A DNA stretch of 39,138 nucleotides from a virus: UHGV virus genome UHGV-0198113; one strand, 5' to 3'. Shown here in pieces: positions 20,281 through 34,857 of the stretch (the stretch's first letter is position 1; each line of letters opens with the position of its first letter). The translations under genes were made by a program, and so were the position numbers. The notes under the pieces were generated by a model. The model was not told the DNA's origin. It did not search any database and saw only the letters and a list, made by a program, of their open reading frames with translations.

Positions 20281-20736
20281 ATGAAAACTTTTATCGCATT
20301 CTTAGTAACCCTTTTAACTTTCGGTCTCAATAACGCTTACGCCGCAATCGGAAGCTGGGAAGGACTTCAAAGTCCGGGAAATGCTGTTTACGAAATCGAA
20401 GACGAAAATGGGAACAGCTTGTCTATCAACTGCGATACCGCAACGGCTAATCGTAAGTTTTACGGTCGCATGGTTTGGTATTACGGTGAACCGGTCGGTT
20501 CAACTAATGCCGAAGACAACGAAATGAGTATTGTCGTAAACGGCAAAAACTATATCATTCCCACTATTGACGGCAGCGACAAAGCAGAAAAAGCTTGGGT
20601 TGCCTTCGCTAATGCTATCGCTAATGCAAAAAGCTTCGGTGTGGCTATCAACGGTAACGAAGCCGCTAACTTTATTGTAGATGGTGAGCGTCTGCCCGAA
20701 ACTTTCTTTAAGAACTGTGGACATAGCCGTCCTTGA
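20281..20736 (+). CDS. small exported protein with signal peptide (151 aa)
   Basis: Track ORF; AAGGAG RBS; N-terminal hydrophobic signal 'MKTFIAFLVTLLTFGLNNAYAA'; two Cys; paralog of the next gene. Confidence 0.8.
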   Translation: MKTFIAFLVTLLTFGLNNAYAAIGSWEGLQSPGNAVYEIEDENGNSLSINCDTATANRKFYGRMVWYYGEPVGSTNAEDNEMSIVVNGKNYIIPTIDGSDKAEKAWVAFANAIANAKSFGVAINGNEAANFIVDGERLPETFFKNCGHSRP

Positions 20737-20773
20737 TAAATAACTTAATTTTTAAACTAAAAGGAATATAACC

Positions 20774-21244
20774 ATGAAACTGTCTAACATCTTCTTAGCT
20801 ATCGTTTTAACTGTAAGCGCCACTGCTGCACAGGCCATTCCGAACATGTGGGGTAGTGGCTTTGCAATGGGTGAAACCGAGTATGGTATCGATAACGGTG
20901 GATGGGGTATTACCATTAGCTGTACCGGTAATCCAGATGAAAACAACATTTTACCACACAAGATCTTTATCTCTAAAGATGGTAATGTGGTGGCCAACTC
21001 GGAAGATAACGACATTAGTTTCGTTATCGATGGTGAAGAGTTCTGGGGTGTAGTTCCTGACGGCACACGTAATACCGACAATACTTGGGTTAGTTTTGTA
21101 AAAGCAATCTCTACAGCAACTGAGTTTGACTTATACCTCGACCAGAAAAAGGTTGCTACCTTTAACCCATCAGCCAAAAACGTTAAGAAAGTGATGGACG
21201 GTAACTTCCTCGAATCTTGCTGGAACACCGAATACGAACAATAA
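20774..21244 (+). CDS. small exported protein with signal peptide (156 aa), paralog of 20281-20736
   Basis: Track ORF; signal 'MKLSNIFLAIVLTVSATAAQA'; shared segments (I-x-C, SEDN/AEDN, VVNG/VIDG, WV[AS]F, C near the C-terminus). Confidence 0.8.
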   Translation: MKLSNIFLAIVLTVSATAAQAIPNMWGSGFAMGETEYGIDNGGWGITISCTGNPDENNILPHKIFISKDGNVVANSEDNDISFVIDGEEFWGVVPDGTRNTDNTWVSFVKAISTATEFDLYLDQKKVATFNPSAKNVKKVMDGNFLESCWNTEYEQ

Positions 21245-21251
21245 TTACAGG

Positions 21252-21267
21252 AAAAAAAGGGGGGGGG
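21252..21267. repeat. homopolymer tract A7G9 in an intergenic region
   Basis: Direct reading: A run 21252-21258, G run 21259-21267, overlapping a weak hairpin (GGGGAC/GTCCCC) and about 25 nt upstream of the RBS of the next gene. Confidence 0.8.
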
Positions 21268-21304
21268 ACTTCGTGGTCCCCGTTCTATTTAAGGAGTGCG
21301 TGAA

Positions 21305-21691
21305 ATGAATATTAAAACTATACTTTATACTATCATTATTTTCTGCGCTATCGGTATTACCGGTACGTACGCTTTCGGTGAATCGGATATCCGCTACTAC
21401 GACCCAGCACCAGATTCCCCAATTATTAATCCTGATGAAACACCAACACTAATGCGGAGCTTCGGTAAACTAGAGGTGTACCGCCTGATGCGTGACAGTA
21501 CATGCACCGGACTAATCATTGCCGATAACGGCGCACGTGTCTATCAACGTCTAACTGATATTGCTTGCGAACAACCAAAAGTCATGTCGGTTAGTATTCA
21601 CCCGTTATCAGTTGGTAATTATACCGCTGTAGATTTCTTTCATAATGCCGAATTAATCGGTCGTGTTACTTTAAATCGCCCTGCTGAATAA
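21305..21691 (+). CDS. small exported protein with signal peptide (~128 aa)
   Basis: Track ORF 21296-21691 trimmed to the ATG 8 nt after AAGGAG; hydrophobic N-terminus 'MNIKTILYTIIIFCAIGITGTYAFG'; Cys-containing. Confidence 0.7.
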   Translation: MNIKTILYTIIIFCAIGITGTYAFGESDIRYYDPAPDSPIINPDETPTLMRSFGKLEVYRLMRDSTCTGLIIADNGARVYQRLTDIACEQPKVMSVSIHPLSVGNYTAVDFFHNAELIGRVTLNRPAE

Positions 21692-21709
21692 TCTAAAGGA
21701 GTAGTTACG

Positions 21710-22195
21710 ATGAAACGTTTACACACACTGATGTTCTTTCTGGCTTTCATGTTTATCGGTGTTACACCAACTGTTGATGCAGCATCAGTGAAAGATGCGC
21801 TTACATGCGACACCAACGCATGGGACGGACAACCTAACGCGTGTCCAAACATCAACGACGTGTACGATACCGATAAGTCATTTAAAGCGGTTGTTGATAA
21901 AACACTGGACCCGGTAGGATTGAATGGTATGTTCGGTGCTAAAGGTTACATGGATGGCCCCGGCGGTGCGATGTACCCGGTAAACATTAATAACAAAATC
22001 TGGATTGAAAGTGGTGGCTGTAAAGCTAACGCTTGTGGCTGGGAATATATCGTAACGTTATACAACCCACAAACCAACGAACTCGTCGGTTATTACTACA
22101 ACATCGACCCCGGTTACCTGATTTGGTTCGGTGATATCGGTGTTGCTGAATTCGCTTATCTGGTTAAGAAATACGCGGAACAATCTAAATACTAA
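21710..22195 (+). CDS. exported Cys-containing protein (161 aa); possible Ivy-like periplasmic inhibitor
   Basis: Track ORF; AAGGAG RBS; signal 'MKRLHTLMFFLAFMFIGVTPTVDAA'; 'GGCKANACGWEY' is a CKxxxCG loop like the Ivy CKPHDCG motif (from memory). Confidence 0.75.
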   Translation: MKRLHTLMFFLAFMFIGVTPTVDAASVKDALTCDTNAWDGQPNACPNINDVYDTDKSFKAVVDKTLDPVGLNGMFGAKGYMDGPGGAMYPVNINNKIWIESGGCKANACGWEYIVTLYNPQTNELVGYYYNIDPGYLIWFGDIGVAEFAYLVKKYAEQSKY

Positions 22196-22206
22196 GGACG
22201 TTTATC

Positions 22207-22617
22207 ATGAAAAATATCATCAACACGCTTCTCGTTGCGATCGCTGTTCTCTTCACTGCTAACGTGACAGCAAAAACAATAAAATTACCGGATGGTATCA
22301 AATACGTCAACAGTACCGATGATTTCTACTGTACAGAAATCGATGGTTTGTACTGCCAGACGAAGAATCTGTTTAAATACAAAGGTAACAGATACGTATT
22401 CGTTGTTGAGCAAGGCGGTGCCTGGTGCTACGACAGCCCTATGTCGGTACTTAACCTCGAAACGTGGAAAGCCCAACGTCTCGAATACAACGACAAGCGT
22501 CTGTGCTCTGGAAATAACAAACCGTTCTTCCAAGTCGTAGATGGTGTGCCGTGGGTAGGGATATTAGACACCTCTGAAAAATCTATCGTTGTGGCTATGG
22601 ATAAACTTAAAATTTAA
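22207..22617 (+). CDS. small exported protein with signal peptide (136 aa), 4 Cys
   Basis: Track ORF; signal 'MKNIINTLLVAIAVLFTANVTA'; Cys spacing similar to the next gene product. Confidence 0.75.
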   Translation: MKNIINTLLVAIAVLFTANVTAKTIKLPDGIKYVNSTDDFYCTEIDGLYCQTKNLFKYKGNRYVFVVEQGGAWCYDSPMSVLNLETWKAQRLEYNDKRLCSGNNKPFFQVVDGVPWVGILDTSEKSIVVAMDKLKI

Positions 22618-22627
22618 GGAGTAACTC

Positions 22628-23017
22628 ATGCGTTTCATTTGCGCTTTAGCATTCTTCTTCTCTCTGAGCGTAACTGCTTCTACCCAGGTTAACGATTTAC
22701 TGCTGACAGCAAACAACAACGACGATTATCAGTACAATCCACCCAGTTTTGAAGTCTGTGAGAATGGAGAAACAACCTGTCAAGAAGTCGGCGCAGATGG
22801 GCGCTACATTCTGGTGAAAGCCGACGGGGGCGCGATGTGCCCAGCCGGTTACTATTTCCTACTTGATTCTGTCGCAAAAGAGGTTCTTCCTATCACTACG
22901 AAAACGTGCGACCCTACTGTTGTCTTATCGCTTGCTAAAAGCAAATCTCGCGACCGTTACTTAATCGTTATCGAAGAACGCGGTGAGATGGCAGGCGCTA
23001 TCGAATTAGATTACTGA
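22628..23017 (+). CDS. small exported protein with signal peptide (129 aa), 4 Cys
   Basis: Track ORF; AAGGAG RBS; signal 'MRFICALAFFFSLSVTAS'; Cys pattern C-x6-C...C...C. Confidence 0.75.
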   Translation: MRFICALAFFFSLSVTASTQVNDLLLTANNNDDYQYNPPSFEVCENGETTCQEVGADGRYILVKADGGAMCPAGYYFLLDSVAKEVLPITTKTCDPTVVLSLAKSKSRDRYLIVIEERGEMAGAIELDY

Positions 23018-23094: not shown

Positions 23095-23571
23095 ATGCAA
23101 CTGTCTAACGTCTACCAAGCAGCACAATTTCATCATGACCTGTCCGCCAAACCTGAACAGATTCGCCACAACCTGACAGTGGCTTGGAAACTATTACGTA
23201 TTGCAGAAGCTGCTCGTATAGGCGACCAGTCAACAATCATCGACACAGTACGTACATTACATCCTGTCGACCTGGAAACAATTTGGACGTTCGATTTAAC
23301 CCGAATTTATCACCGCCGATTTAATGCAGCCGTTGACGCAATTCGTCCTTATTTCCATTACTTACGGACAACGCGAGAAAGCGATACTGCACTCGAATGG
23401 GTATTGGTACAAAGTGTATGGAGCGACTACATTTATCTCCTTTCTTTAGAGACGGGTGAATGTATCGTTGCTAACGAAGTCTTTTCAAGTAACGCGGAAA
23501 TGTACCGCTCCTACGCAACGATTAAAGGTGAATCCCAGCCTATTTTATCACTCACGCACTTAGGGCTCTAA
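23095..23571 (+). CDS. hypothetical protein (158 aa)
   Basis: Track ORF; AAGGAGA RBS; single-gene unit flanked by terminators. Confidence 0.7.
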   Translation: MQLSNVYQAAQFHHDLSAKPEQIRHNLTVAWKLLRIAEAARIGDQSTIIDTVRTLHPVDLETIWTFDLTRIYHRRFNAAVDAIRPYFHYLRTTRESDTALEWVLVQSVWSDYIYLLSLETGECIVANEVFSSNAEMYRSYATIKGESQPILSLTHLGL

Positions 23572-23628: not shown

Positions 23629-24237
23629 ATGAACGAAATCACACTAGTTCGTTTTCTTGAAGCCATGTTGAACGCAGAGCAGCATCCACACACCCCGTTA
23701 TTCATCGATCTGATGGAAGAAGAAGTTGAAGGGTTCTTAGCTTACCCGCGTTTACGGGAATACTTTAAGCGTAAAACACCGGTGGCGTATGACAAACTGG
23801 TTTACGCGCTCGAGAACAGTACGACTTTACTGACAACGCCGTTCAAAGCAATGGAAGCTCTCGACCCAGCGGGTACTGTCAGTATTCCGCAACGTGTTGT
23901 GTTCTATTACGTGGACAACGGTCGTATTAAAGCAGACGTTGTTAACTGGATCTCTGAAGGCGAAGTTCCTGAAACCCGTACCTTTAACTTGTGTCCGGTA
24001 GAAGAAGGTTGGATGGTCGGTAGCCATTATTCTTATCCGTACCAAAGCATTAAATCCCCGTATCTCTATCCGGTTTATCTGGATGGCGTAACGCCAGGGA
24101 AATGTGCGGCAGTAACCAATCTGATTTGCACACTAACAATGGAGATGATGGCTTCTGAAGCAGGTCGGGTTTGGGTAGAAAACTCAAAGAACATTGATGA
24201 CTGGATTTCAATGGGATATCAACCGTATACCAAATAA
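23629..24237 (+). CDS. hypothetical protein (202 aa)
   Basis: Track ORF; AAAGGAAA RBS; no metallophosphatase (Mre11-type) motifs seen. Confidence 0.7.
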   Translation: MNEITLVRFLEAMLNAEQHPHTPLFIDLMEEEVEGFLAYPRLREYFKRKTPVAYDKLVYALENSTTLLTTPFKAMEALDPAGTVSIPQRVVFYYVDNGRIKADVVNWISEGEVPETRTFNLCPVEEGWMVGSHYSYPYQSIKSPYLYPVYLDGVTPGKCAAVTNLICTLTMEMMASEAGRVWVENSKNIDDWISMGYQPYTK

Positions 24238-24241
24238 CACT

Positions 24242-24290
24242 TGGGAGAACCTTCGGGTTCTCCCATTCGTTTTTATTTTTTTTTCTTTTT
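24242..24290 (+). terminator. rho-independent terminator with C(UUCG)G tetraloop
   Basis: Stem GGGAGAACC/GGTTCTCCC with TTCG loop, followed by a long T-rich tract (TTTTTATTTTTTTTTTCTTTTT). Confidence 0.8.
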
Positions 24291-24320
24291 ACACCACACT
24301 CCGTGATTATGGAGGTGGGT

Positions 24321-26825
24321 ATGCTAAAAGTTGAACGTATTGTACTCAAAGGTTTTACGGGGATGGGATTGCACGAAATTGAAACGTTCGATTTCACTAT
24401 CCAGTCACCGACAACGATTATCCTGGGTGGGAACGGTTGTGGGAAGACCAGTTTACTGTCCGTATTTTTGCCCTTAGCTCCGGCTAAAACAGAATTCAGG
24501 GATGGGGGTTCTTACACGAATTATTGTTTAGTCGGCGATCAACGTTACCGTTTCAAAGTTGCCCGTAAAGGCAACTCGTTGGTTTGCGATATTGAGAATC
24601 TCACTACGGGAACGAAGATTGTCGAGCAAGGTAACGCAAAGGTTTACAATTCACGCGTTGAAGAAATCACTGGTATTACGAAAGAAATTAAAGAATTGTT
24701 AAACGGTGAGGTGTTGTTAACGGACGCGGGAACGGAATTACGTCGTAAATGGTTTTACCGTTTAAGTACCTCTGACCTTACTTACGCGCTAGGGTTCTAT
24801 CAGAGATTGCGGAAAAACCTCACCGTCTTAAACGGTGGCATTGAAATTACCAGTCGTAAGATCGCAGAGTTACGAACACGTGTTATTGAAAATGAAGAAG
24901 AACGTCAACAGTTAGCGGTAAGATTAAAAGGCTTGGAATCGGATTTACGCGAACTGAACCGACAAATCGAACAGCTACCGGGTTTAAATCGTGGCGTTAC
25001 TATCGAATCAATCCAGGCGTTATTAAACGGCTTAGGTCCAACTATCGACGCAATATTACAACATCGTGGTGGTTTGCCTACCGACGAACAGATACTGAAC
25101 GCACGACACAATGAAGCCACAGCACGCGAAGCTGTCGTTTCAGCAGAAACGGAAGTATCAATGTTGAATAAAGATCTGTCGTTATTGATGGACGAGTCAA
25201 CGCGACAGGATTACCTGATGCGCAATCACGAGGGTCTCAAGAACACTCTCGCACGTTTACGTGAAGTGCTTACCAAATGGGACACCGAGCATCTCTTTCC
25301 TGGACTGTTTAGTGAGAGTGCGAATTTAGACCAGCTACGTGCTGCAACCGATGCACGCGTTTGGGGCCAACGACTGGGAACAACACTGGACGCCATTCAT
25401 TCAACCGAAAAGCTCAACGTTTTGGAAGAACGTCTACTGGTGATGGATCAGAAGACCGCAGGATTGCGAGATAGACTCCAGCGCGTAGAGAATGTTTTAC
25501 AAAACTTGAACCACGAACGAAATCACTATCTGGAAACAGCAGAAGTAGATTGCCCGCAATGTCGGTTTAAATTTCGACCTGGGGTTACGCGTTCTTTGTC
25601 TGAACTTGAAACCTCGATTAGAGGCCAACAGCAACAACGTACGGAGCTTCAAACACAGTTAGACAGTATATTACGCGATCGTGTCGAACTGGAATCTGAT
25701 GTAACGTATATGCGTCAGGTTCGTGAAATCGTGTTGACGTACTCAAAGGACCCGGTTTTAAGCATGTTCTTTAAGTGTCTACAAGAACGTAATGTCTTTA
25801 CAGAATCACGCGAACAGTTCGGAAGTCTCTGCGCGGCTTTTGACAGTGAGCTGTATTCTGCTATTGAATATCATGAAACCCGTCAACGGTTAGTGAAGGC
25901 AGAAAAAGAATGGCAAGATGCGGTAGCTGCTGTGGGTAACGTCGATGGTGCTTTACAACAGAAAATTGCTTTCCAACAATCGCGTTTAGGTAAAGCCACA
26001 GAAACGCTCTCAGTGCGTCGTAGAGAGCACGAGTTAGCTAATACGACACTTACCTATCTAGAGAGCGTTAAACGTGCTATAGACGATTTTAGCGCGTTAT
26101 TCGAACGGTTAGAGAATGACGTTAAGGTTACTTTGACAAACACAGTTGTCGAAGAACTCTTACGGGCACGAGAAGGGAAACTGGATGCGTTTACGACAGC
26201 ACGTGAGCGTTATCGTCAAATGGAAAGTGAACTGAATCAGCTCAATACGTTGGAACGCGAACTTGCGGATTTACAAGCCCAGCAGTTTAATAACAAATTG
26301 ATGATTCAGGCGTTCTCGCCAGAAAAAGGTGTACTCAGAAAGTATTTTTACAATGCTATCGTCAGAATCACAGAGTTAATGACGCGCTATATCGAACAAG
26401 TCTGGACGTACCCCATGCGAGTTATGCCTTGTGATCTCACCGACGGTGATTTGGATTATACTTTTCCTGTCCAACTAAAAACACATCCTGAACCCGTTCC
26501 TGATGTGCGTAAAGGGTCTAAGGCACAACGTGCTATATTCAATCTGATGTTCAGACTGACTGCGTATAAAGCGTTGAAATTACATCAGTTTCCTTTGCTA
26601 TTGGATGAACCCTCAGAGGGTATGGACGAAGAACACCGTAATAACCTGGTTGGTTTTATTAAAACGTTAGCAAACTCAGGGGAGTTCTCGCAGTTACTGG
26701 TGGTCTCCCACGAAGCTGAAGTCCATTCTAAACTTAACGAAGCATCGTACTGTGTCATTGAACCGGAAGGGGTGACATTACCTGCGGTGTATAACGAGGG
26801 AGTAAAAATTGTTTATGCAAACTGA
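24321..26825 (+). CDS. Rad50/SbcC-like SMC-family ATPase with coiled coil and CxxC zinc hook (~834 aa)
   Basis: Track ORF 24303-26825 trimmed to the ATG 5 nt after GGAGG. Walker A 'GGNGCGKTSLL'; mid-protein 'CPQC' hook within predicted coiled coil; C-terminal Walker B/D-loop 'LLLDEPSEGMDEE' and 'LLVVSHE'. Confidence 0.8.
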   Translation: MLKVERIVLKGFTGMGLHEIETFDFTIQSPTTIILGGNGCGKTSLLSVFLPLAPAKTEFRDGGSYTNYCLVGDQRYRFKVARKGNSLVCDIENLTTGTKIVEQGNAKVYNSRVEEITGITKEIKELLNGEVLLTDAGTELRRKWFYRLSTSDLTYALGFYQRLRKNLTVLNGGIEITSRKIAELRTRVIENEEERQQLAVRLKGLESDLRELNRQIEQLPGLNRGVTIESIQALLNGLGPTIDAILQHRGGLPTDEQILNARHNEATAREAVVSAETEVSMLNKDLSLLMDESTRQDYLMRNHEGLKNTLARLREVLTKWDTEHLFPGLFSESANLDQLRAATDARVWGQRLGTTLDAIHSTEKLNVLEERLLVMDQKTAGLRDRLQRVENVLQNLNHERNHYLETAEVDCPQCRFKFRPGVTRSLSELETSIRGQQQQRTELQTQLDSILRDRVELESDVTYMRQVREIVLTYSKDPVLSMFFKCLQERNVFTESREQFGSLCAAFDSELYSAIEYHETRQRLVKAEKEWQDAVAAVGNVDGALQQKIAFQQSRLGKATETLSVRRREHELANTTLTYLESVKRAIDDFSALFERLENDVKVTLTNTVVEELLRAREGKLDAFTTARERYRQMESELNQLNTLERELADLQAQQFNNKLMIQAFSPEKGVLRKYFYNAIVRITELMTRYIEQVWTYPMRVMPCDLTDGDLDYTFPVQLKTHPEPVPDVRKGSKAQRAIFNLMFRLTAYKALKLHQFPLLLDEPSEGMDEEHRNNLVGFIKTLANSGEFSQLLVVSHEAEVHSKLNEASYCVIEPEGVTLPAVYNEGVKIVYAN

Positions 26826-26994
26826 TTGGTTCCGTCGTTCGATGAGCGCGGCGGGATTTGGCTTTATGGTCATTTTGGCAATACTTTACGTCATGTTTTG
26901 CGTGGTAATGATTTTATGGGTAGTTTCATCGTATTCGATTAAACTATTCTGGGGTTCGATTTGGCGTCAACGCGAATGCGAGTGGCGGAATTAG
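26815..26994 (+). CDS. small hydrophobic membrane peptide (~59 aa)
   Basis: Track ORF 26809-26994 trimmed to first ATG; TM segment 'FGFMVILAILYVMFCVVMILWVV'; overlaps the end of the ATPase gene (possible coupling); weak RBS. Confidence 0.4.
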   Translation: MQTDWFRRSMSAAGFGFMVILAILYVMFCVVMILWVVSSYSIKLFWGSIWRQRECEWRN

Positions 26995-27005
26995 GAGAGG
27001 GAATT

Positions 27006-27116
27006 ATGATTGAAGGGGTTCTGCTAACGCTAGGTGCGTTGTGGTTGATCGGTAAAGGTTTAAACTGGTTAATTAAACGACACGGCTGGGCGTTCGAAGG
27101 TTCGACATTCAAATAA
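27006..27116 (+). CDS. small membrane peptide (36 aa)
   Basis: Not in track (under 60 aa). AGGAGAGGG RBS 6 nt upstream; 'MIEGVLLTLGALWLIGKGLNWLIKRHGWAFEGSTFK'; followed by hairpin GTACCCTC/GAGGGTAC. Confidence 0.4.
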   Translation: MIEGVLLTLGALWLIGKGLNWLIKRHGWAFEGSTFK

Positions 27117-27163
27117 TCCAGAACGTACCCTCTGTAAGGAGGGTACTAACAGGAACAGAAAAG

Positions 27164-27292
27164 ATGACCTCGATAAATACTACGAATGCGGCGATCTCTG
27201 CATTATACGATGCGGAGCTTACATGGGGCGGGATGCTAATTACCGCCGCCATATTAGCCGCCGCAGCATTCGTCATTGCGCGTTGGTTTTAA
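27164..27292 (+). CDS. small membrane peptide (42 aa)
   Basis: Not in track. 'MTSINTTNAAISALYDAELTWGGMLITAAILAAAAFVIARWF' has a C-terminal TM helix; weak RBS; followed by a T-rich tract. Confidence 0.35.
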   Translation: MTSINTTNAAISALYDAELTWGGMLITAAILAAAAFVIARWF

Positions 27293-27325
27293 CTTTTTAC
27301 TTTTTTGCGTCTCTAAGGTTTGCAA

Positions 27326-27769
27326 ATGGAAATTTATTTATTGAACGCATCCTCTAAAGTCGGTGAGCAACAAGCAAGTGACTTACTTAAATTACACTAC
27401 CGTTACTTAGACCACCAAGCTACGTTACTAAAAATCAAAATGGCCGTGCCGAAGTTAAATGCACGGCAGCTGATCGAGGGTAACTGCGTAGTTCTGGTGT
27501 ATCTGGACGGTGTGGCAGTAGGTTATTGCAGTTACCGGAATCGTAATGGTTCCCTCAAGATACGTTCACTGTATGTGTTGCCGGATTATCGACAGCGTGG
27601 CGTAATGAAAGAGATTTTTAAAGCAATCGCAGCCGATGAAGCTTTCAGCGAGATCGTTGTTGGCATGTATGCGAAGTGCAAAGAAGCAAAAGAATATTTC
27701 ATCCGACGCGGTTATCAAGCGGTTTACTCACGCGATCGTGAGTGGGTCGATTTTAGCAAATCATTCTAA
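27326..27769 (+). CDS. GNAT-family N-acetyltransferase (~147 aa)
   Basis: Track ORF 27320-27769 trimmed to ATG; motif A-like 'VLPDYRQRGVMKEIF' (Q/R-x-x-G-x-G/A). Confidence 0.7.
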   Translation: MEIYLLNASSKVGEQQASDLLKLHYRYLDHQATLLKIKMAVPKLNARQLIEGNCVVLVYLDGVAVGYCSYRNRNGSLKIRSLYVLPDYRQRGVMKEIFKAIAADEAFSEIVVGMYAKCKEAKEYFIRRGYQAVYSRDREWVDFSKSF

Positions 27770-27835
27770 AATAATAAAAGCTCTCTTGGCGTTCCTCACT
27801 ATGAGTGTGAGAAATTTACGTCAGGAGAGCTATTT

Positions 27836-28081
27836 ATGTTAAAATCGTACGGAGTGGGTGGTTTGGATACGAGTATTTGTTGGAAAGAATACGAACGCGC
27901 CAAAGCGTTCTTACAACATCCCAACGTAGGAACAATCGGTAAGGTTTGTTTTGGTAAACCTTCACTGACAGCTTCTATCCAAGGGGCTTTAGGAACGTTG
28001 CCACCCGAAACACATTTCGAGCCTGAGGAGAATATGAATGTTCACAGAGAATCCGTCAGTTTACGGTCTACCACTGGATGA
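27836..28081 (+). CDS. hypothetical protein (81 aa)
   Basis: Track ORF; AGGAGAG RBS 6 nt upstream. Confidence 0.55.
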   Translation: MLKSYGVGGLDTSICWKEYERAKAFLQHPNVGTIGKVCFGKPSLTASIQGALGTLPPETHFEPEENMNVHRESVSLRSTTG

Positions 28082-28406
28082 GTTTGACATTCTACAAATT
28101 TGTTATCAATGCGGCGATTTTGGTAACACACAAGTCACACGTTTAGTTAAGATGTTGGGCTACTTACCTGAAATCGAACTACCTTTTGTTAAACCCAGCT
28201 TAGTTCGTCGTGCATCATGTCGTGAAGCTTATCTGCTTTGGAAGCACAATATTGCTGTAGAGAAAGTCTGGGACCGCATGAACGATCATCAGTTCCGTGA
28301 ACAGGTTGTTCATACACTCAACTTAGCGTTGGCTATGCAACGCCTGGGTCTACAGCACGAAGGTTTAGAAACGGCAGTCAAACAGTGGATTAAGAAAAAT
28401 CAATGA
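28038..28406 (+). CDS. hypothetical protein (122 aa)
   Basis: Track ORF; GAGGAG RBS 8 nt upstream; start lies within the 3' end of the previous ORF in another frame. Confidence 0.6.
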   Translation: MFTENPSVYGLPLDEFDILQICYQCGDFGNTQVTRLVKMLGYLPEIELPFVKPSLVRRASCREAYLLWKHNIAVEKVWDRMNDHQFREQVVHTLNLALAMQRLGLQHEGLETAVKQWIKKNQ

Positions 28407-28493
28407 TGGGTAAAACATATATCGCCATACTCGTTGAGTTGTCGATCGGTGGTACACGTTTTAACACCGTCCATCAACTTCGAGTGAATCGTT

Positions 28494-28991
28494 ATGCTAA
28501 CGATACGTAAAGAATCTGAGATCGGCGGCGACCTTTTTAATGCACCTGAAGCTTATAAGGTCGTTACCATTAACTGCGTGGGCGCAATGGGTCGCGGTAT
28601 TGCTTTAGCCTGTCGAGAACGCTACCCTACGCTTTATCAGGATTATCGTAAACGTTGTCGCGAAAACGAAATCAGGATTGGAAATGTCTACGTTTATCCT
28701 GACGAAAAGTGTATCCTGCTCCCCACAAAAACACACTGGCGTCTAAAGTCCCAAGTTTCTTATGTTACTGCGGGTATTACCGCATTAGCAGATTGTGTTG
28801 AAAACCTGGACACCTCTGTTGCTATCCCTCCACTGGGAATGGCCAATGGTTGGTTACGTCCTTGGGAAAGACAAGAAATCTTTTTGTGGCTTTACGACAA
28901 ACTTGAAACAAGGAGACAACATCACACGTTATATCTACCCGATGCATTGTACCAAGAAGCTCGGTCTTTAATTCCAAACTCTTTTAAATAG
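28494..28991 (+). CDS. macrodomain protein, TARG1/OARD1/DarG-like (165 aa)
   Basis: Track ORF; 'GDLFNAPEAYKVVTINCVGAMGRGIALACRERYP' matches the TARG1-type macrodomain N-terminal signature (GDLF...H/NC...MGAGIA) as I recall it; downstream 'PTKTHW' and 'PPLGMANGWL' align with the Lys and G-x-G-x-D regions. Confidence 0.7.
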   Translation: MLTIRKESEIGGDLFNAPEAYKVVTINCVGAMGRGIALACRERYPTLYQDYRKRCRENEIRIGNVYVYPDEKCILLPTKTHWRLKSQVSYVTAGITALADCVENLDTSVAIPPLGMANGWLRPWERQEIFLWLYDKLETRRQHHTLYLPDALYQEARSLIPNSFK

Positions 28992-29091
28992 ATATTATCA
29001 TTAGGGCACACAACAAAGGAGTATTAGCTGTCCGCGCCGTCATTTCGTCTTACGGAATACGGAAATGTATAAATCCAACTGGAGAAGCAAA

Positions 29092-29790
29092 ATGTTTCGT
29101 ATCTTCTTTCTTTTACTGGTAACACTTTTCGCGTTTAACGCACAGGCGTCAACGTCAACGCCACAATCTAAGCATCATCGTGAGTTTGCACAAATCCAAC
29201 ATCGATTCGAAAAGGTCAGTCCTTTAATTGTGGAAATCTCCCGAAAGCAAGGCGTTGATCCTAAATTGATGGTTACGCTGATTTACCGTGAATCGCGTTT
29301 TGATCCTAAAGCTTACAATAAAAGCTCAAGAGCACACAGCCTGGTACAGATGGTTCCGAGTACCAAACGTAATTTGCTAAAGCTTTACGGAAAAGAATTA
29401 GGTCTTAGTCAGAACGCCGATTTGTACAATCCGCGTAATGCTGTTTTGCTGGCTGCCGCGTATATTAAGCATCTTGAAAAGGGGTTAACTAAACGACTCA
29501 AACGCAAGCCCACCATGGCTGAAGTTGCGTTAGCTTACCACTGGGGTGAAAGTGGTGCACACGCACGAATCAAAAGCAAATCTCGAGCAGCACAACGAGA
29601 AATGGCAGGGTTTATGAAAGACGCAGCATTTTACAGTGCGAAAATCGATGTACCTGCTGCTGTGGGCTCGGCTCCACGTCAGCTTGCGTTTGCGAAGAAG
29701 TCACCACGTCAGATTCAATTGGCGGAAGTCAGTAGAATTTGGGATACGATAAACACGAGTTTTCCAATCAATAGAGGAGTTGCCCTTTGA
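29092..29790 (+). CDS. exported lytic transglycosylase (SLT domain) with Sec signal peptide
   Basis: Track ORF 29065-29790; start moved to the ATG with GGAG RBS at -7 (29065 is an alternative). Signal 'MFRIFFLLLVTLFAFNAQA'; SLT signature 'RESRFDPKAYNKSSRAHSLVQMVPST' (catalytic E-S, Q-M/LMQ-type motif). Confidence 0.75.
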   Translation: MFRIFFLLLVTLFAFNAQASTSTPQSKHHREFAQIQHRFEKVSPLIVEISRKQGVDPKLMVTLIYRESRFDPKAYNKSSRAHSLVQMVPSTKRNLLKLYGKELGLSQNADLYNPRNAVLLAAAYIKHLEKGLTKRLKRKPTMAEVALAYHWGESGAHARIKSKSRAAQREMAGFMKDAAFYSAKIDVPAAVGSAPRQLAFAKKSPRQIQLAEVSRIWDTINTSFPINRGVAL

Positions 29791-30296
29791 GCATCGTTGT
29801 AACCGATTGGTATAAAGGCATTACAAAAGCCGCACAACTAACCGCGAAAGACGTTTACGCTATCGTCCGAAGCAGTATCGAAGACGAGATTAAATCGGAT
29901 GAAGATTTCGCTGAGAAGCACGAATTTTACGATGCTTTGCCTACTGCCTTCGGCGATGATCCCGAGAATGAGCAAGAGTTTGATTGGAACGTAAACTTAG
30001 CACTGCTCTGGATTTGTGGTCTACGGCCAACGGTAAAAGAAACCGAAGAAGGTAAAGTGTTGCTCTGGAACTATACGGGTCAGTATAACCGTGGGTTGGT
30101 CTTTAAGCAAGCGTATATGGATGCTACTGTAGAACTTCAGAATCTGTTACTTGGCGAAAACACCTACTGCCAACGTAGCTTCTTAACGATTCTGGAAAAA
30201 CTCGTAGCAACACACAAAGTCTGGCGTAAAACTGACGCCCCTGAACACATGTTCATTCTGGAATACGCGGTTATTCCAAACCAACCGTTCTTCTAA
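29787..30296 (+). CDS. hypothetical protein (169 aa), TTG start
   Basis: Track ORF; AGAGGAG RBS 9 nt upstream of TTG; overlaps the previous stop by 4 nt; start codon uncertain. Confidence 0.55.
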   Translation: MSIVVTDWYKGITKAAQLTAKDVYAIVRSSIEDEIKSDEDFAEKHEFYDALPTAFGDDPENEQEFDWNVNLALLWICGLRPTVKETEEGKVLLWNYTGQYNRGLVFKQAYMDATVELQNLLLGENTYCQRSFLTILEKLVATHKVWRKTDAPEHMFILEYAVIPNQPFF

Positions 30297-30300
30297 TCCC

Positions 30301-30340
30301 TACCCCTACTCTTAACGGAGTAGGGGTACTTTTATTTTCA
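30301..30340 (+). terminator. rho-independent terminator
   Basis: 11-bp perfect stem TACCCCTACTC/GAGTAGGGGTA, 6-nt loop, followed by CTTTTATTTTCATTT. Confidence 0.8.
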
Positions 30341-30360
30341 TTTCCTAAAGGAGCAAAAGC

Positions 30361-30840
30361 ATGATAAAATTTATTTGGCGTTATCCAACACGTTTTTGGT
30401 TTGTGGTACTTGAGTTGTTTATGATTCTTGCGGCGGTTACTTTCGTTAATGCGCCTGCTTCGCAGTTAACTATATTCTGTTTATTCGTAGCAATCCCTGT
30501 ATGGGTTATCGCAAAGATTATTAAGTTCTTCATGATTAGTTGGGCGAATTATACGTGCCCGTATAAACCTAAAGAAATCATGAACTGGTTAATGTACATT
30601 GAAGATCGCTTACCAGCGCAGCATAAAAGCCTGGGCTGGGAGTCGATGTTAGATATTGCGTTAGAAACTAATGCGAAATTCCCCGGTTCGAAGAATCCGT
30701 ATTTGTTACTGGCGGTTATTGTTGCGCAACAGAAACGTGCAGGCGATCGATGGTTGCCGGAAGAAGCAAAAGAGTATATCCGTAAACACCCAAAAGCTTT
30801 CTATTCAATAGGACAATGGCGTAATCTGCCACTATTTTAA
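30361..30840 (+). CDS. membrane protein with two N-terminal TM helices (159 aa); holin-like candidate
   Basis: Track ORF; AAGGAG RBS; TM segments 'FWFVVLELFMILAAVTFV' and 'LTIFCLFVAIPVWVIAKIIKFF'. Confidence 0.7.
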   Translation: MIKFIWRYPTRFWFVVLELFMILAAVTFVNAPASQLTIFCLFVAIPVWVIAKIIKFFMISWANYTCPYKPKEIMNWLMYIEDRLPAQHKSLGWESMLDIALETNAKFPGSKNPYLLLAVIVAQQKRAGDRWLPEEAKEYIRKHPKAFYSIGQWRNLPLF

Positions 30841-30893
30841 CTTTTTACAGAACCCTTAGTTGATTTGAATAAACCTAAAAGAGGACTATTAAA

Positions 30894-31829
30894 ATGACTT
30901 TTCCATCTGAAGTAATCTACGAACTGGCTAACACTCTGCGTCGTCACTATAATGGACATATGCTGCAATCCTGCATAGGTGAAACTGCTGACTTCCTGCG
31001 TGGCCATCTCCTGGGTAACAACCCGTCTTCGATTACACAGGAGACGGTTTTCCATATTGATCGTGCCACCAAAATTCTTCCAATTAGCGACGCCGTCGCA
31101 GTTCAAGAGGGCTATACATTCAACTTCTCTATGGGGATGCGTCATTCCTCTATTGCTATTAATCCCGTCTCGGGAAATGAACCGTCCTTCATGCTCAATC
31201 CGTTTCCTGCGAAGCACGGTAACTGGTTCGTTGTGGTAGAACAAGGCGTGAATCAGTACGAGGTTGTTGCGGCTCGCGACGAGTCGTTCTTTGACTTAGG
31301 GCAGATTTCTCGCCGCCAAGAAATTGCTCTTGACCTTCGTCAGGGCAATATCGGATTAAGTGGAAGCGTGGTCTATTTCATTCTGAGCAGTTGGGCACAT
31401 GTAAGTTATATCCTGAGTAAAGCTGATGTAACGTTCCACCCAATAGAGGTAGATTACCGCGCCGCGAAGAATGACGATCATGACGAAGAAGAACCGGTAC
31501 CTGGTGCAGAAGTTGCGGTTTGTGAAGACTACGACGATCTAAAATCCGTGTTTGTTAAACGTGACATCTTCGAATCTCTTAACCTGGATTTCCCTGGTGA
31601 CGAGAAAGAAATATCTGTCGCAGACCTGGTAGAAGCCCTGTGCCAGAAAGACCAGTCTAATGAAATCAGTGATGAAGAAGCTGAACTCTTCCAGGTTCAA
31701 CAACTTATCAGTAAAGTTATAGGTGGTCAAGAAATCGCCGACACCCTTATGGCTCTACCGCCGAAGAAACGTACGCAGAAATATATCCGCGAACTGGTTC
31801 TTAAAGCGCTAGGTCAAAAAGCAAAATAA
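30894..31829 (+). CDS. hypothetical protein (311 aa), acidic C-terminal half
   Basis: Track ORF; AGAGGA RBS. No motif recognised. Confidence 0.7.
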   Translation: MTFPSEVIYELANTLRRHYNGHMLQSCIGETADFLRGHLLGNNPSSITQETVFHIDRATKILPISDAVAVQEGYTFNFSMGMRHSSIAINPVSGNEPSFMLNPFPAKHGNWFVVVEQGVNQYEVVAARDESFFDLGQISRRQEIALDLRQGNIGLSGSVVYFILSSWAHVSYILSKADVTFHPIEVDYRAAKNDDHDEEEPVPGAEVAVCEDYDDLKSVFVKRDIFESLNLDFPGDEKEISVADLVEALCQKDQSNEISDEEAELFQVQQLISKVIGGQEIADTLMALPPKKRTQKYIRELVLKALGQKAK

Positions 31830-31832
31830 AAG

Positions 31833-31870
31833 TTACCCTACTCCTTCGGGAGTAGGGTAATTCTTTTTTT
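31833..31870. terminator. bidirectional rho-independent terminator with C(UUCG)G tetraloop
   Basis: 12-bp stem TTACCCTACTCC/GGAGTAGGGTAA, TTCG loop, T8 on plus and T-rich on minus; between convergent genes. Confidence 0.85.
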
Positions 31871-32492
31871 AGTTAACTAACCCGTTAGCTTTAAGAATCT
31901 CTAACATTTGGTTGTTTAACTCTTTTAATTTTTTGTTTTCTTCCGTTAATGCAGTCACCTGTTCACCTAATGGAATCGATTCACGAATTTTATTCTTTCG
32001 TGCCGCTTCCATCTGTAGGTGTTGTTCTTCCGTCACTTTCCCTTCATACTCGAGCGTCGTGACCTCAACTTTCGGATCAATCCCCAGTGTGTGGGTAAGT
32101 ATATCCGAAACGTCTTTGGTCATCGCCGACACATTCACGTAGTCTGGTACAAGCGCCAGATCAATCACCATCACGTTCCGCTGATACGTAATCCCAGACA
32201 GACCAGGATATGACTCCAGGTAAGTGTCGGGTATATACGCAACCTGTCCGTCGCGAGACTTAAACGTCAGAATGGATGCACTGACATTCGCATCTGCTAA
32301 ATATTCTTCACGACTCAGGCCGACTGGCTGGTAATACTCGTTATAAACGTCAATATTCTGACGTACTAAATCTGGGAAGGTACGTGACGCTTCTACTGTA
32401 TAAATGACCGTTTCGGATAAAGTAAAAGGTGTCTTTACTTTAAAAAGCCCTGTAGTGTTAACAGGGACCTGTAGTGGTAAGCGCGTGGCCAT
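31869..32492 (-). CDS. hypothetical protein (207 aa), C-terminal coiled-coil-like segment
   Basis: Track ORF; immediately downstream (3-nt gap) of the 457-aa gene on the minus strand. Confidence 0.7.
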   Translation of the reverse strand: MATRLPLQVPVNTTGLFKVKTPFTLSETVIYTVEASRTFPDLVRQNIDVYNEYYQPVGLSREEYLADANVSASILTFKSRDGQVAYIPDTYLESYPGLSGITYQRNVMVIDLALVPDYVNVSAMTKDVSDILTHTLGIDPKVEVTTLEYEGKVTEEQHLQMEAARKNKIRESIPLGEQVTALTEENKKLKELNNQMLEILKANGLVN

Positions 32493-32495
32493 TTA

Positions 32496-33869
32496 TTACT
32501 CCTCGTCTAACTCGGTGTACCATTTCGCTTTCCGAGACAGGATACGGTATTCTACGTTGTCGTATTCAAACACCCAGAAGTAGTTATCAGGGTCAGCTTC
32601 ATCGACCAATTTTACCACATCCAAACTAGTCTGATACGGATGGTACTCTTCTGCGGCAATTAACGCTTGGAAGAATAATGCCAACCATTCAGTCGTGGTT
32701 TTCGACATACGGGCAATATCCGGGTTAGTCGTCGCAATTAACGCATAATCCGGGATAGTTTCATGCAACGTTGCTTTACGCGTGTCATTCTCAGGACCAC
32801 TAATGACGACACAGTTTAGTGATTTATAAACCGTCGGTAGATCGGTTACATCCGTTGTAGGTTTACTAATTGTATTAGTATTTCTTTCTGTCACCGTCTG
32901 ATCTGACCATTCCCCAAACCGTGTAATGGCTTTGACCCAGAAATCATATGGAAGGATGGGGGAATAAAGTGCCGCCACATCTTCCTCATTGGGTATTCCA
33001 CGAATTTTCCACCCAGGAACAATTGTAAATTTCGTCGTGGTGAAAATTTCAGGAAATACTTTTACCCCAATCGGAACGGTAAAACTGGAGTTAGCGAGAA
33101 TGTGTTCTCGCAATGCCTGTTTTATTTTCGTTGGGTTTTTTCCTGCGCGTCCGTAGATAATAACCGACATTGGAACTACCAGCGTGGACTCGTAGTTTTC
33201 TTGATCGTGCCAAGTATAGTAGTTAGTTTGAATGGCGGTATATGGAAAACCCGCCATTAACTCGTTGATTTTCTTATGGTGTTCGGTAAGGTTAAACCCT
33301 TCCATTGCCTTTTCAACGACGGACTTGGTCGATAAGAATGTGTCGATTGGTGAAATCGGCATTTGTACCTCGATTTCAAAACCTGTGTAGTCTTGGTCGA
33401 AGTCTTCATCCGAGAACCAAACGATGATTTGGTTATTTACATCAGTTGCATCTTGTACTTGTTCTGCTGTTGCTTCAAACTTCCAGCTAACCCAACGTGG
33501 GAACCAGTTTCCGTTAGTCTGGATCATTGCACCAGATTGAACACCGGAAATGGTTGATTGGAATTGGCCTAATAACAGGCGCTGGAATTCAAGCTCGTCA
33601 TTTCTCAGATTCCCCAAGATCGCTTGCTGGTAAATCCATTGAGAAACGGTTAGAATATGATCAGAAAACTCGGCTGGTACAACAACCGTCTGTTTTTCTC
33701 GTTTAGACGTAAATGTCACCAATTGCACTTGCAAGTTGGCTTTAGTAAACGTCTGTTTACTCTTCGCGTACGAGAGGGTCAAATCAGACAGCTCGCCCAC
33801 CGGAGCGGTGACGCCGTCCTGATTGTCAAACAGAGCCGGTATCTGAATAAAACCTTGTAAGTCTAACAT
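32496..33869 (-). CDS. hypothetical protein (457 aa)
   Basis: Track ORF; start is 25 bp from the divergent plus-strand gene at 33895. Confidence 0.7.
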   Translation of the reverse strand: MLDLQGFIQIPALFDNQDGVTAPVGELSDLTLSYAKSKQTFTKANLQVQLVTFTSKREKQTVVVPAEFSDHILTVSQWIYQQAILGNLRNDELEFQRLLLGQFQSTISGVQSGAMIQTNGNWFPRWVSWKFEATAEQVQDATDVNNQIIVWFSDEDFDQDYTGFEIEVQMPISPIDTFLSTKSVVEKAMEGFNLTEHHKKINELMAGFPYTAIQTNYYTWHDQENYESTLVVPMSVIIYGRAGKNPTKIKQALREHILANSSFTVPIGVKVFPEIFTTTKFTIVPGWKIRGIPNEEDVAALYSPILPYDFWVKAITRFGEWSDQTVTERNTNTISKPTTDVTDLPTVYKSLNCVVISGPENDTRKATLHETIPDYALIATTNPDIARMSKTTTEWLALFFQALIAAEEYHPYQTSLDVVKLVDEADPDNYFWVFEYDNVEYRILSRKAKWYTELDEE

Positions 33870-33894
33870 AATTAAAAATACTCCGAGGTGAGCA

Positions 33895-34398
33895 ATGGGT
33901 TCATTTCTTAAAGTGCTTCCGTTCTTCCTTCAGATGTTAATGGAAGCATTTAAACCAGGAGAAGGAGAAAACGTATCAAGAGCAAGCAAGATAATGACTT
34001 TAATCATCACGATCTTGTTATCATATTCGGGCTTCGTCTCCTACGCGTATGTGCAACAATTTCACGCACTCGTTTCGGTGCAGTCTCATGACGCATATAT
34101 GACGCAGTCTTATCAAGAGATGAAACAAGATCGTGATAAGCTGAAAGAAGATAATGGCAAGTTATACGACAGACTCTTCGTTTGTCTCGGCCAGAAACCG
34201 CCATATGAAAGCACGTTCAACCCATCGAAAGAGAGCGGTTCGACGAAGGATCTGACGCCAACAAAACCAGAAACTCCTGTTAGTCCGGCTTCAACACCAG
34301 AACAACGCAAAGAAGCATCGGCGAGACCTGTGGGTAGTTTAGATGCAAACAGTTTTCGACAGGAGATTATAAAGACGCTAACGTCTGCTAAGGAGTGA
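33895..34398 (+). CDS. membrane-anchored protein with periplasmic coiled-coil-like and Pro/Thr-rich region (167 aa); i-spanin-like architecture
   Basis: Track ORF; GAGGTG RBS; single TM 'IMTLIITILLSYSGFVSYAYV' (res ~33-53) then 'SYQEMKQDRDKLKEDNGKLYDRL'. Confidence 0.65.
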   Translation: MGSFLKVLPFFLQMLMEAFKPGEGENVSRASKIMTLIITILLSYSGFVSYAYVQQFHALVSVQSHDAYMTQSYQEMKQDRDKLKEDNGKLYDRLFVCLGQKPPYESTFNPSKESGSTKDLTPTKPETPVSPASTPEQRKEASARPVGSLDANSFRQEIIKTLTSAKE

Positions 34399-34401
34399 TT
34401 G

Positions 34402-34857
34402 ATGAAAACGCTGTTATTCATCATGGTTGTATTCATGGGTTTGGTGAGTAATAGCTACGGCGAAGAGGTCAGACGGGCAGCTTATCGTCCATTGGAACCT
34501 CCTCCGACACCACCCATCATGGTGAATTGGAAAATTGACAAAGATGCAATGCGTGAGTATGTTGCAGACGTCAACACCTATGCTTATTACGTTTATGTCT
34601 ACACACGAAATTTAAATCAGCAAGCCGCTAAACGTGGCTGGAGCCCTCCGATGTTGGCTCCACTCTGCGAACGTTATGAGTTACCGAAATTACATGTTGT
34701 GCCTGAACGTTTATCACTCGATGAAAGTTCCTTAACGCCGCAAGAAATTAGTCGGGACTTATCACGAAAACTTAACAGTTTGTTGTGGAATTACCGTTCT
34801 GACCGTCAGACCTTACTCGATTCGTACAATCAATACTTGACGACGTGTTTGTACTGA
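34402..34857 (+). CDS. exported Pro-rich protein (~151 aa)
   Basis: Track ORF 34399-34857 trimmed to ATG 6 nt after AAGGAG; signal-like 'MKTLLFIMVVFMGLVSNSYG'; 'PLEPPPTPP'; no lipobox Cys. Confidence 0.65.
   Translation: MKTLLFIMVVFMGLVSNSYGEEVRRAAYRPLEPPPTPPIMVNWKIDKDAMREYVADVNTYAYYVYVYTRNLNQQAAKRGWSPPMLAPLCERYELPKLHVVPERLSLDESSLTPQEISRDLSRKLNSLLWNYRSDRQTLLDSYNQYLTTCLY

Follow-up and report, generated by a model that had tools for sequence, protein, structure and literature searches.

Does a jumbo phage of enteric bacteria send its endolysin to the periplasm through the host Sec system, and if so, is a nearby membrane protein its partner in lysis? The question was raised by one gene in a 39,138-nt stretch of viral DNA (UHGV virus genome UHGV-0198113, hereafter the window), which encodes a lytic transglycosylase of the SLT family at 29092-29790. 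A first-pass annotation of the window had read this gene, together with a gene for a protein with two transmembrane (TM) helices at 30361-30840, as a possible lysis module. The window is part of an SPN3US-like (phiKZ-related) jumbo phage of Salmonella/Shigella with a genome of approximately 225 kb. At the protein level, identity to Salmonella phage SPN3US (Seoulvirus) and to Erwinia amylovora jumbo phages is 40-60%, and the gene order from 24303 to 34857 is that of SPN3US from gp186 (SbcC) to gp205. Lysis by phiKZ-like jumbo phages was worked out recently, and for phiKZ alone (PMC12894885), and no holin has been identified in the enteric relatives (SPN3US and phages of Erwinia, Serratia, and Cronobacter), a gap noted for Serratia phage Moabite. 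If an endolysin of these phages is exported by Sec, some other control must set the time of lysis. Our analysis indicated that, very probably, the SLT protein is a muralytic enzyme that is directed to the periplasm, stays out of the virion, and would act as the phage endolysin. With moderate confidence, we regard the locus as the endolysin gene of an SPN3US-like jumbo phage followed by a conserved partner gene, g2, rather than as a pair of enzyme and membrane protein.

SLT gene product and its predicted signal peptide

The features of the SLT gene are as follows (a slash marks a predicted cleavage site here and below).

29081-29085, plus strand: Shine-Dalgarno (SD) sequence GGAGA, read 7 nt upstream of the ATG at 29092
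29092-29790, plus strand: lytic transglycosylase of the SLT family (Pfam SLT), 232 aa, probable exported endolysin, orthologue of SPN3US gp198
29092-29148, plus strand: predicted signal peptide, aa 1-19, MFRIFFLLLVTLFAFNAQA, with a predicted signal peptidase I site AQA/S and a tripartite design found in 17/17 aligned homologues

The open reading frame (ORF) spans 29065-29790, and its conserved start is the ATG at 29092. This start was favored over the in-frame upstream ATG at 29065 because of the GGAGA sequence and the starts of the homologues: the near-identical database proteins P0001 and P0002 start at 29092, and all homologues begin M-[FLM]-[RK]. The protein matched the Pfam SLT domain (PF01464) with E=1.5e-15 (57.2 bits, cutoff 21.3; match over profile positions 3-114 of 117), so the SLT domain seen in the first pass was confirmed at its place. 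The best PDB match was the catalytic domain of phiKZ gp144 (3BKH, E=8e-7, residues 42-160), and gp198 had also been linked to phiKZ gp144 by PSI-BLAST in Thomas et al. 2016 (PMC5105663, Table S1). The catalytic pair E67-S68 (YRESRF; nt 29290-29295, Glu67 at 29290-29292) was invariant in 17/17 aligned sequences, and the YRESRF block aligned with the phiKZ gp144 motif SIESAF. The protein is about 50% identical to the "putative endolysin" of SPN3US and the Erwinia jumbo phages, and it is the only lytic transglycosylase reported in a Seoulvirus genome. By these matches it is assigned to the family-1 lytic transglycosylases, with enzymatic activity predicted. The mature protein would have an isoelectric point (pI) of 10.4 and no cysteine.

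The signal peptide was called by rule-based inspection of the sequence. It is composed of the n-region MFR, the 12-residue h-region IFFLLLVTLFAF, and the c-region NAQA/S, with small residues at -3/-1 and no lipobox. In the alignment of 17 SLT sequences (A1, 38-93% identity), F15, A19, and S20 were invariant, and N16 was nearly so. In more distant enterobacterial phiKZ-like genera, the signal sequences were unrelated but built alike, with A/S at the end of each: MKHLFLGLAILLTSLPALA/S in Derbicusvirus, ...FPATA/S in Moabitevirus, ...APALA/S in Risingsunvirus, and ...LVHA/S in Agricanvirus. Judged from these sequences, the recurrence of the design exceeds chance, and the cleavable-looking signal peptide described in the first pass was upheld in 17/17 homologues and in four distant genera.

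Absence of the orthologue from the phage particle

Virion membership of the SLT protein had been set beforehand as the outcome that would speak against a role in lysis, so it was checked in SPN3US, and the orthologue gp198 was not in the particle. The 83-protein particle proteome of SPN3US contains none of gp198, gp199, gp200, and gp201, and it includes the neighbors gp193, gp202, and gp203 (Thomas et al. 2016, PMC5105663 Table S4). An exported enzyme cannot enter a particle that is assembled in the cytoplasm, and therefore the enteric lineage would have a dedicated, non-structural enzyme. In phiKZ, by contrast, gp144 is also a structural "wedge" in the particle neck (PMC13250141). In Goslar, a phiKZ-related phage of E. 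coli, no homologues of the phiKZ neck ring have been identified. The genome annotations of Seoulvirus list no other endolysin-type gene save large virion proteins.

Conserved downstream gene g2

29787-30296, plus strand: g2, conserved acidic cytoplasmic protein, 169 aa, function unknown (phrog_8114, E=1e-72; SPN3US gp199)

g2 is translationally coupled to the SLT gene: its TTG start overlaps the SLT stop codon (TTGA) and has the SD sequence GAGGAG ahead of it. The g2 protein has a pI of 4.7 and no TM segment. Homologues were found in 60 phage records, and most of these matches overlapped an endolysin annotation. In all the loci that we read, namely SPN3US, pEa_SNUABM_9, ChrisDB, Wellington, Machina, Asesino, phiEaH2, EarlPhillipIV, and three IMG/VR contigs of this lineage, g2 lay directly 3' of the SLT gene, even where the identity was as low as 28% (EarlPhillipIV, Derbicusvirus). 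The AlphaFold2 (AF2) model of g2 had a predicted local distance difference test (pLDDT) score of 90. Fold searches with g2 gave no informative match, and BFVD returned only one uncharacterised homologue, R4II41. A possible relationship of g2 to gp143, the lysis regulator of phiKZ, was also considered and rejected (BLASTP E=44; hhalign E=0.73; BFVD, only R4II41). Coupled to the enzyme gene and inherited along with it, g2 probably serves as a dedicated accessory factor that either regulates the pre-enzyme or acts as its chaperone.

Membrane protein g3 and its variable slot

30301-30338, plus strand: terminator-like hairpin (12-bp stem, 6 GC pairs; 30301-30328) and T-run between g2 and g3, read from the sequence
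30361-30840, plus strand: g3, 159-aa membrane protein by hydropathy, holin/antiholin candidate only (phrog_20030, E=1.6e-9)

Hydropathy analysis bore out the two N-terminal TM helices of g3. TM1 spans aa 12-30 (nt 30394-30450) and contains an invariant Glu18; TM2 spans aa 36-58 (nt 30466-30534). The helices are followed by a basic C-terminal domain (pI 9.3) of about 100 residues that is predicted to be cytoplasmic. The topology predicted by the positive-inside rule is N-in/C-in, which is that of class II holins. g3 is small, has at least one TM domain (TMD), and carries a charged C terminus, as permissive and non-specific criteria for holins ask, but a linkage to the endolysin gene that is conserved across related phages was not found. 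The first-pass annotation had placed it two genes downstream; more exactly, it is the second gene after the SLT gene, and it follows a terminator-like hairpin. Read-through past this hairpin is possible because such hairpins are frequent in this genome.

The content of the slot behind g2 was variable. It was empty in Asesino, phiEaH2, and EarlPhillipIV, all of which have the same pair of signal-peptide SLT gene and g2. SPN3US has the unrelated gp200 there (86 aa, 2 TMDs), ChrisDB has one membrane protein of another family, and Machina, Wellington, and pEa_SNUABM_9 have two membrane proteins. In Kodama, RisingSun, and Ea35-70, no TM protein adjoined the signal-peptide SLT gene. Homologues of g3 were found only in four Erwinia phage genomes (tblastn) and in six near-relatives of the lineage (metagenome protein database). 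The AF2 model of g3, built from seven near-identical sequences, reached a pLDDT of 54.

These results bear directly on the proposal that the SLT protein and g3 form a self-contained module of exported endolysin and holin or pinholin, in which g3 would time lysis by depolarization. Its strengths are the class II holin-like layout of g3 (two close TMDs and a charged C-terminal domain), the strong SD sequence of g3 and its distance of 64 nt from the SLT-g2 pair, and the presence of a membrane protein in the same slot of SPN3US, ChrisDB, Machina, Wellington, and pEa_SNUABM_9. Holins are typically highly diverse in sequence, and the paired membrane proteins of the last three phages could be holin/antiholin pairs. 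Yet three relatives keep the same SLT gene and g2 with an empty slot, three more phages have no TM protein adjoining the SLT gene, g2 and g3 lie on either side of a terminator-like hairpin, no function is known for phrog_20030, the structure model of g3 is uninformative, and a universally conserved alternative candidate, the gp86 family, is encoded elsewhere. The pairing of the SLT protein with the two-TM protein was thus not supported, as relatives with the same SLT-g2 pair have zero, one, or two unrelated membrane proteins in the slot, and we consider the module unlikely. Because the slot is variable, the hairpin lies in between, and the family is narrowly distributed, g3 fits better with a lineage-variable, fast-evolving accessory membrane protein than with a partner that the enzyme cannot do without. 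Its role may lie in the modulation of lysis, as a holin or antiholin, or equally in something like exclusion.

Holin candidate of the gp86 family

In the phiKZ lysis cassette, gp140 (RuvC-like) is followed by the spanins gp141/141.1, the holin gp142, which has a cytoplasmic domain at its N terminus and a TMD, the regulator gp143, and gp144 (PMC12894885). In SPN3US, gp86 comes directly after gp85, the gp140 homologue, and has a soluble N-terminal domain of about 100 residues followed by two TMDs; the next gene, gp87, encodes a cytoplasmic protein. gp86 and gp87 therefore stand where phiKZ has the holin gp142 and the regulator gp143. The gp86 family was found in 72 phage records across the clade, always after the RuvC-like gp140 homologue, and also on IMG/VR contigs that carry the SLT protein of the window at 94% identity. 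On a related IMG/VR contig of the lineage, the gp86-family gene lay approximately 74 kb from the SLT gene. The gp86 and gp87 genes are outside the window, at 84978-86286 of SPN3US JN641803 (L006 10979-12287) and, in this lineage, at L027 4001-5322.

Comparison of gp86/gp87 with gp142/gp143 gave only a suggestive N-terminal match (LDVLIQAGTNKLS against EDVLIEIDGNPLS), and gp87 was not significantly similar to phiKZ gp143 (BLASTP E=1.1; hhalign E=0.5). By synteny and architecture, gp86 and gp87 are a candidate holin/regulator pair of the SPN3US-like clade, and the gp86-family protein is, as a lead, a stronger holin candidate than g3. The first-pass annotation had named a canonical endolysin-holin cassette elsewhere in the genome as evidence against its module. 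A better-conserved holin candidate is located elsewhere in the genome, and the lysis genes are dispersed.

Signal peptide or SAR domain

The first pass had compared the enzyme with secreted or signal-anchor-release (SAR) endolysins. If the N-terminal segment were a SAR domain, the enzyme would remain bound to the inner membrane in an inactive state until a pinholin collapsed the proton motive force, which would directly solve the problem of timing. SAR domains are about 20 residues long and more than half G/A/S/T (55-65% in P1 Lyz and R21). Across the SLT proteins described above, the hydrophobic run was 11-15 residues (12 in the SPN3US-like family), and the G/A/S/T fraction was 0.17-0.43 (0.17 in the window). 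Twelve residues are unable to span a bilayer stably, and the weakly hydrophobic TMD of about 20 residues without a cleavage site that characterizes SAR endolysins was not found in the SLT protein. Because the h-region is short and rich in F/L/I/V and is followed by a conserved A-x-A/S, we infer that the segment is a cleavable Sec signal peptide and not of the SAR type. SAR endolysins are the common exported type in Gram-negative phages (review PMC6116005), but for this enzyme we regard a SAR domain as very unlikely; the "secreted" half of the earlier comparison is retained and the SAR half is dropped.

Spanin homologues downstream

30894-31829, plus strand: g4, 311-aa conserved soluble protein, function unknown (phrog_11818, SPN3US gp201 family), the last gene of the plus-strand block
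33895-34398, plus strand: i-spanin homologue, 167 aa, with a TM segment at aa 33-53, a coiled-coil-like segment, and a Pro/Ser/Thr-rich tail (phrog_8719, E=1e-59; SPN3US gp204, CR5_183)
34402-34857, plus strand: o-spanin homologue, 151 aa, SPN3US gp205 family (phrog_8165, E=1e-42)

The first-pass annotation did not include these spanin homologues, which lie some 3 kb downstream, and they add support to the reading of the SLT protein as an exported endolysin. The i-spanin homologue is a type II membrane protein with a weak DivIC-type coiled-coil match, as expected of an i-spanin. The gene of the o-spanin homologue starts 3 nt after the i-spanin stop, and CR5_183 was catalogued as a separated i-spanin, with the next gene as o-spanin, in the supplement of Kongari et al. 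2018. We infer a spanin function for the window pair as well. The endolysin and spanin genes lie within 6 kb, which supports a loose lysis neighborhood; between them are g4 and, on the minus strand, two tail genes (31869-33869; both gp202 and gp203 belong to the virion).

The o-spanin homologue gave the least expected observation. In the window it reads MKTLLFIMVVFMGLVSNSYG/EE, with no lipobox Cys and no Cys before residue 89. An N-terminal extension was ruled out because there is an in-frame TGA just upstream, and no credible lipoprotein turned up when all ORF starts of the window were scanned for a lipobox. Seven aligned members of a 61-member cluster likewise had no Cys before residue 89, and two of three IMG/VR contigs (L020, 11922-12377; L021, 11926-12381) showed the same pattern. 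The third contig (L022, 11911-12366, of an 82% lineage) reads MKSLLFIMILCVGLVSNGYG and has a Cys at position 11, within the hydrophobic core and not in a lipobox. In another alignment (A6), the homologues of SPN3US, pEa_SNUABM_9, and EarlPhillipIV had the lipoboxes LTGC, LVAC, and VSSC, respectively, and all o-spanins in the survey of Kongari et al. 2018 (528/528) had a lipoylation Cys.

The spanins also bear on the weakest alternative, that the exported SLT protein is a periplasmic factor for cell-wall remodelling or exclusion and that another enzyme performs lysis. Such a factor would have parallels in the specialised lytic transglycosylases with signal peptides known from secretion systems (VirB1, IpgF, and EtgA). 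In favor of this alternative, numerous small exported proteins are encoded, by six consecutive signal-peptide genes at 20281-23017 and by 34402-34857, so that the phage clearly has periplasmic functions beyond lysis, and Tgl of Staphylococcus Kayvirus is a precedent for a secreted accessory lytic transglycosylase (PMC7150955), but the spanin genes are adjacent, no second endolysin-type gene is annotated in Seoulvirus apart from the large virion proteins, and the closest characterised relative, phiKZ gp144, is a true endolysin whose knock-down protects the host from lysis, all of which makes it highly improbable.

Comparison with known systems

The SLT protein resembles phiKZ gp144 in its catalytic fold and motif, and the two phages belong to the same broad group and have the same kind of spanin genes. 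In contrast, gp144 lacks a signal peptide and carries a peptidoglycan-binding domain at its N terminus, where the SLT protein has a predicted Sec signal peptide. gp144 needs the class III holin gp142, and its gene is one of five packed tightly into a cassette (Manohar et al., Sci Rep 2026, PMC12894885); here the lysis genes are dispersed, with the SLT gene at 29 kb and the spanins at 34 kb of the window and the holin candidate at the distance given above. gp198 of SPN3US and its Erwinia orthologues share the same signal peptide, the g2 partner, and the synteny from SbcC to the tail genes, and their annotation as "putative endolysin" is based on similarity.

Among exported endolysins, a close likeness in mode of export is Lys44 of the Oenococcus phage fOg44 (one of the "e-endolysins", PMC6116005), which has a cleavable Sec signal peptide, so that its export is independent of a holin and control comes after export. 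Lys44 has a Gram-positive host and was proven experimentally, whereas the SLT protein is a lytic transglycosylase of a phage with a Gram-negative host and is known from sequence alone. The systems of SAR endolysin and pinholin (P1 Lyz, R21/S21, phiKMV) are similar in that export depends on Sec and that the nearby 2-TMD protein could be a pinholin; they differ in that the N terminus of the SLT protein has signal-peptide features and the 2-TMD neighbor is not conserved. As for the separated two-component spanins of Kongari et al. 2018, the window pair is homologous to the CR5_183 pair, but its o-spanin homologue has no lipoylation Cys.

Proposed mechanism and its weighing

Lysis could proceed as follows. 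The family-1 lytic transglycosylase would be made with a cleavable Sec signal peptide, exported by host Sec, and processed by signal peptidase I, and the basic mature enzyme would accumulate in the periplasm without the need for holin holes. Later depolarization of the membrane by a holin or pinholin would unleash its activity, by analogy with Lys44, and the pair of i-spanin and o-spanin type would then disrupt the outer membrane.

Several points weigh against this picture. Export of a soluble muralytic enzyme throughout infection raises a timing problem in a Gram-negative host. Sec export, cleavage, and the lytic role as endolysin are deduced from sequence. In the literature that we searched, there was no experiment on any member of this SLT family and no mention of its signal peptide or of a functional test. 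The partner g2 showed no similarity to gp143 and gave no informative fold match. Finally, gp86 was not significantly similar to phiKZ gp142 (BLASTP E=30; hhalign E=0.078), and because of this the holin proposal for gp86 draws on synteny and architecture.

A broader reading, which as a whole we find quite unlikely, is that the enterobacterial phiKZ-like phages have rewired lysis. A Sec-exported and processed enzyme would have replaced the phiKZ endolysin, which is cytoplasmic, released by a holin, and partly bound to the virion; activity would be checked after export, perhaps by g2 and the 2-TM proteins; and the lipid anchor of the o-spanin would have been lost in this lineage. If this were true, disruption of the outer membrane must work without a lipoprotein o-spanin. 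If the enzyme is exported by Sec, its natural form is the processed form from Ser20, which matters for antibacterial use. The practical value is modest, since an annotation of the gene as putative endolysin exists already and the concept of exported endolysins is well established, with signal-peptide endolysins known since 2000 (PMC6116005).

Neighboring genes and phage lineage

The first pass had also listed three micro-ORFs upstream of the SLT gene as further membrane candidates.

26815-26994, plus strand: single-TM micro-ORF
26961/26976-27116, plus strand: single-TM micro-ORF
27164-27292, plus strand: single-TM micro-ORF

They lie directly after the SbcC-like gene and are the equivalents of SPN3US gp187-189, with counterparts also in pEa_SNUABM_9. 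They are indeed conserved membrane peptides with one TM segment each, but no tie to lysis was seen, and they always follow the SbcC gene and not the SLT gene. As holins they were rejected, given their conserved position after SbcC, away from the SLT gene, and the lack of supporting evidence. Thomas et al. 2016 noted gp187 as a TM protein next to SbcC and raised a possible bearing on the interactions of the SbcCD complex and on its place in the cell.

Just upstream of the SLT gene are genes for a macro-domain (Appr-1-p processing) protein (28494-28991) and a GNAT acetyltransferase (27320-27769), and both keep this position in all SPN3US-like relatives examined. Further upstream, at 20281-23017, six consecutive plus-strand genes (151, 156, 131, 161, 136, and 129 aa) all start with classical Sec signal peptides. 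None of them had a Pfam domain; their matches were to PHROGs of unknown function (phrog_3429 twice, 9424, 8968, and 5248), and one had no match. The region looks like a block of small periplasm-directed phage proteins.

A near-identity DNA search of GenBank phages with 27000-33000 gave no match, and the lineage is known solely from assemblies and metagenomes. Many NCBI assemblies labelled Salmonella enterica (several serovars) or Shigella flexneri contain contigs of 221-228 kb with proteins 90-99% identical to those of the window, and near-identical proteins of this lineage were also present in IMG/VR. One cluster member of the lineage proteins was carried by 166 contigs. Because lineage proteins recur in isolate assemblies, this uncultured jumbo phage would often accompany sequenced isolates, which may point to a carrier state or pseudolysogeny.

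Terminator-like hairpins were about twice as common in 24000-34000 as in shuffled sequence (20 against 9.7). Clear examples were at 24242-24265, 30301-30328, and 31831-31862, the last of them bidirectional, and two further hairpins with T-runs were seen by eye ahead of the starts at 23095 and 23629, in the 100 nt before them. Sigma-70-like promoter matches were rarer than expected in 24000-34000 (5 against 17). Inspection by eye recognised no shared promoter motif upstream of the plus-strand genes. The many hairpins and few sigma-70-like sites fit transcription by phage RNA polymerases.

In the closest IMG/VR relatives, an extra 182-aa gene lies 3' of g4 (L020, 8799-9347; L021, 8802-9350; L022, 8785-9333). 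Its N terminus resembles that of g4 (MFPSSEYLTHLAYGIRR against MTFPSEVIYELANTLRR), and the window has no such gene, a pattern that suggests local duplication and loss in this block.

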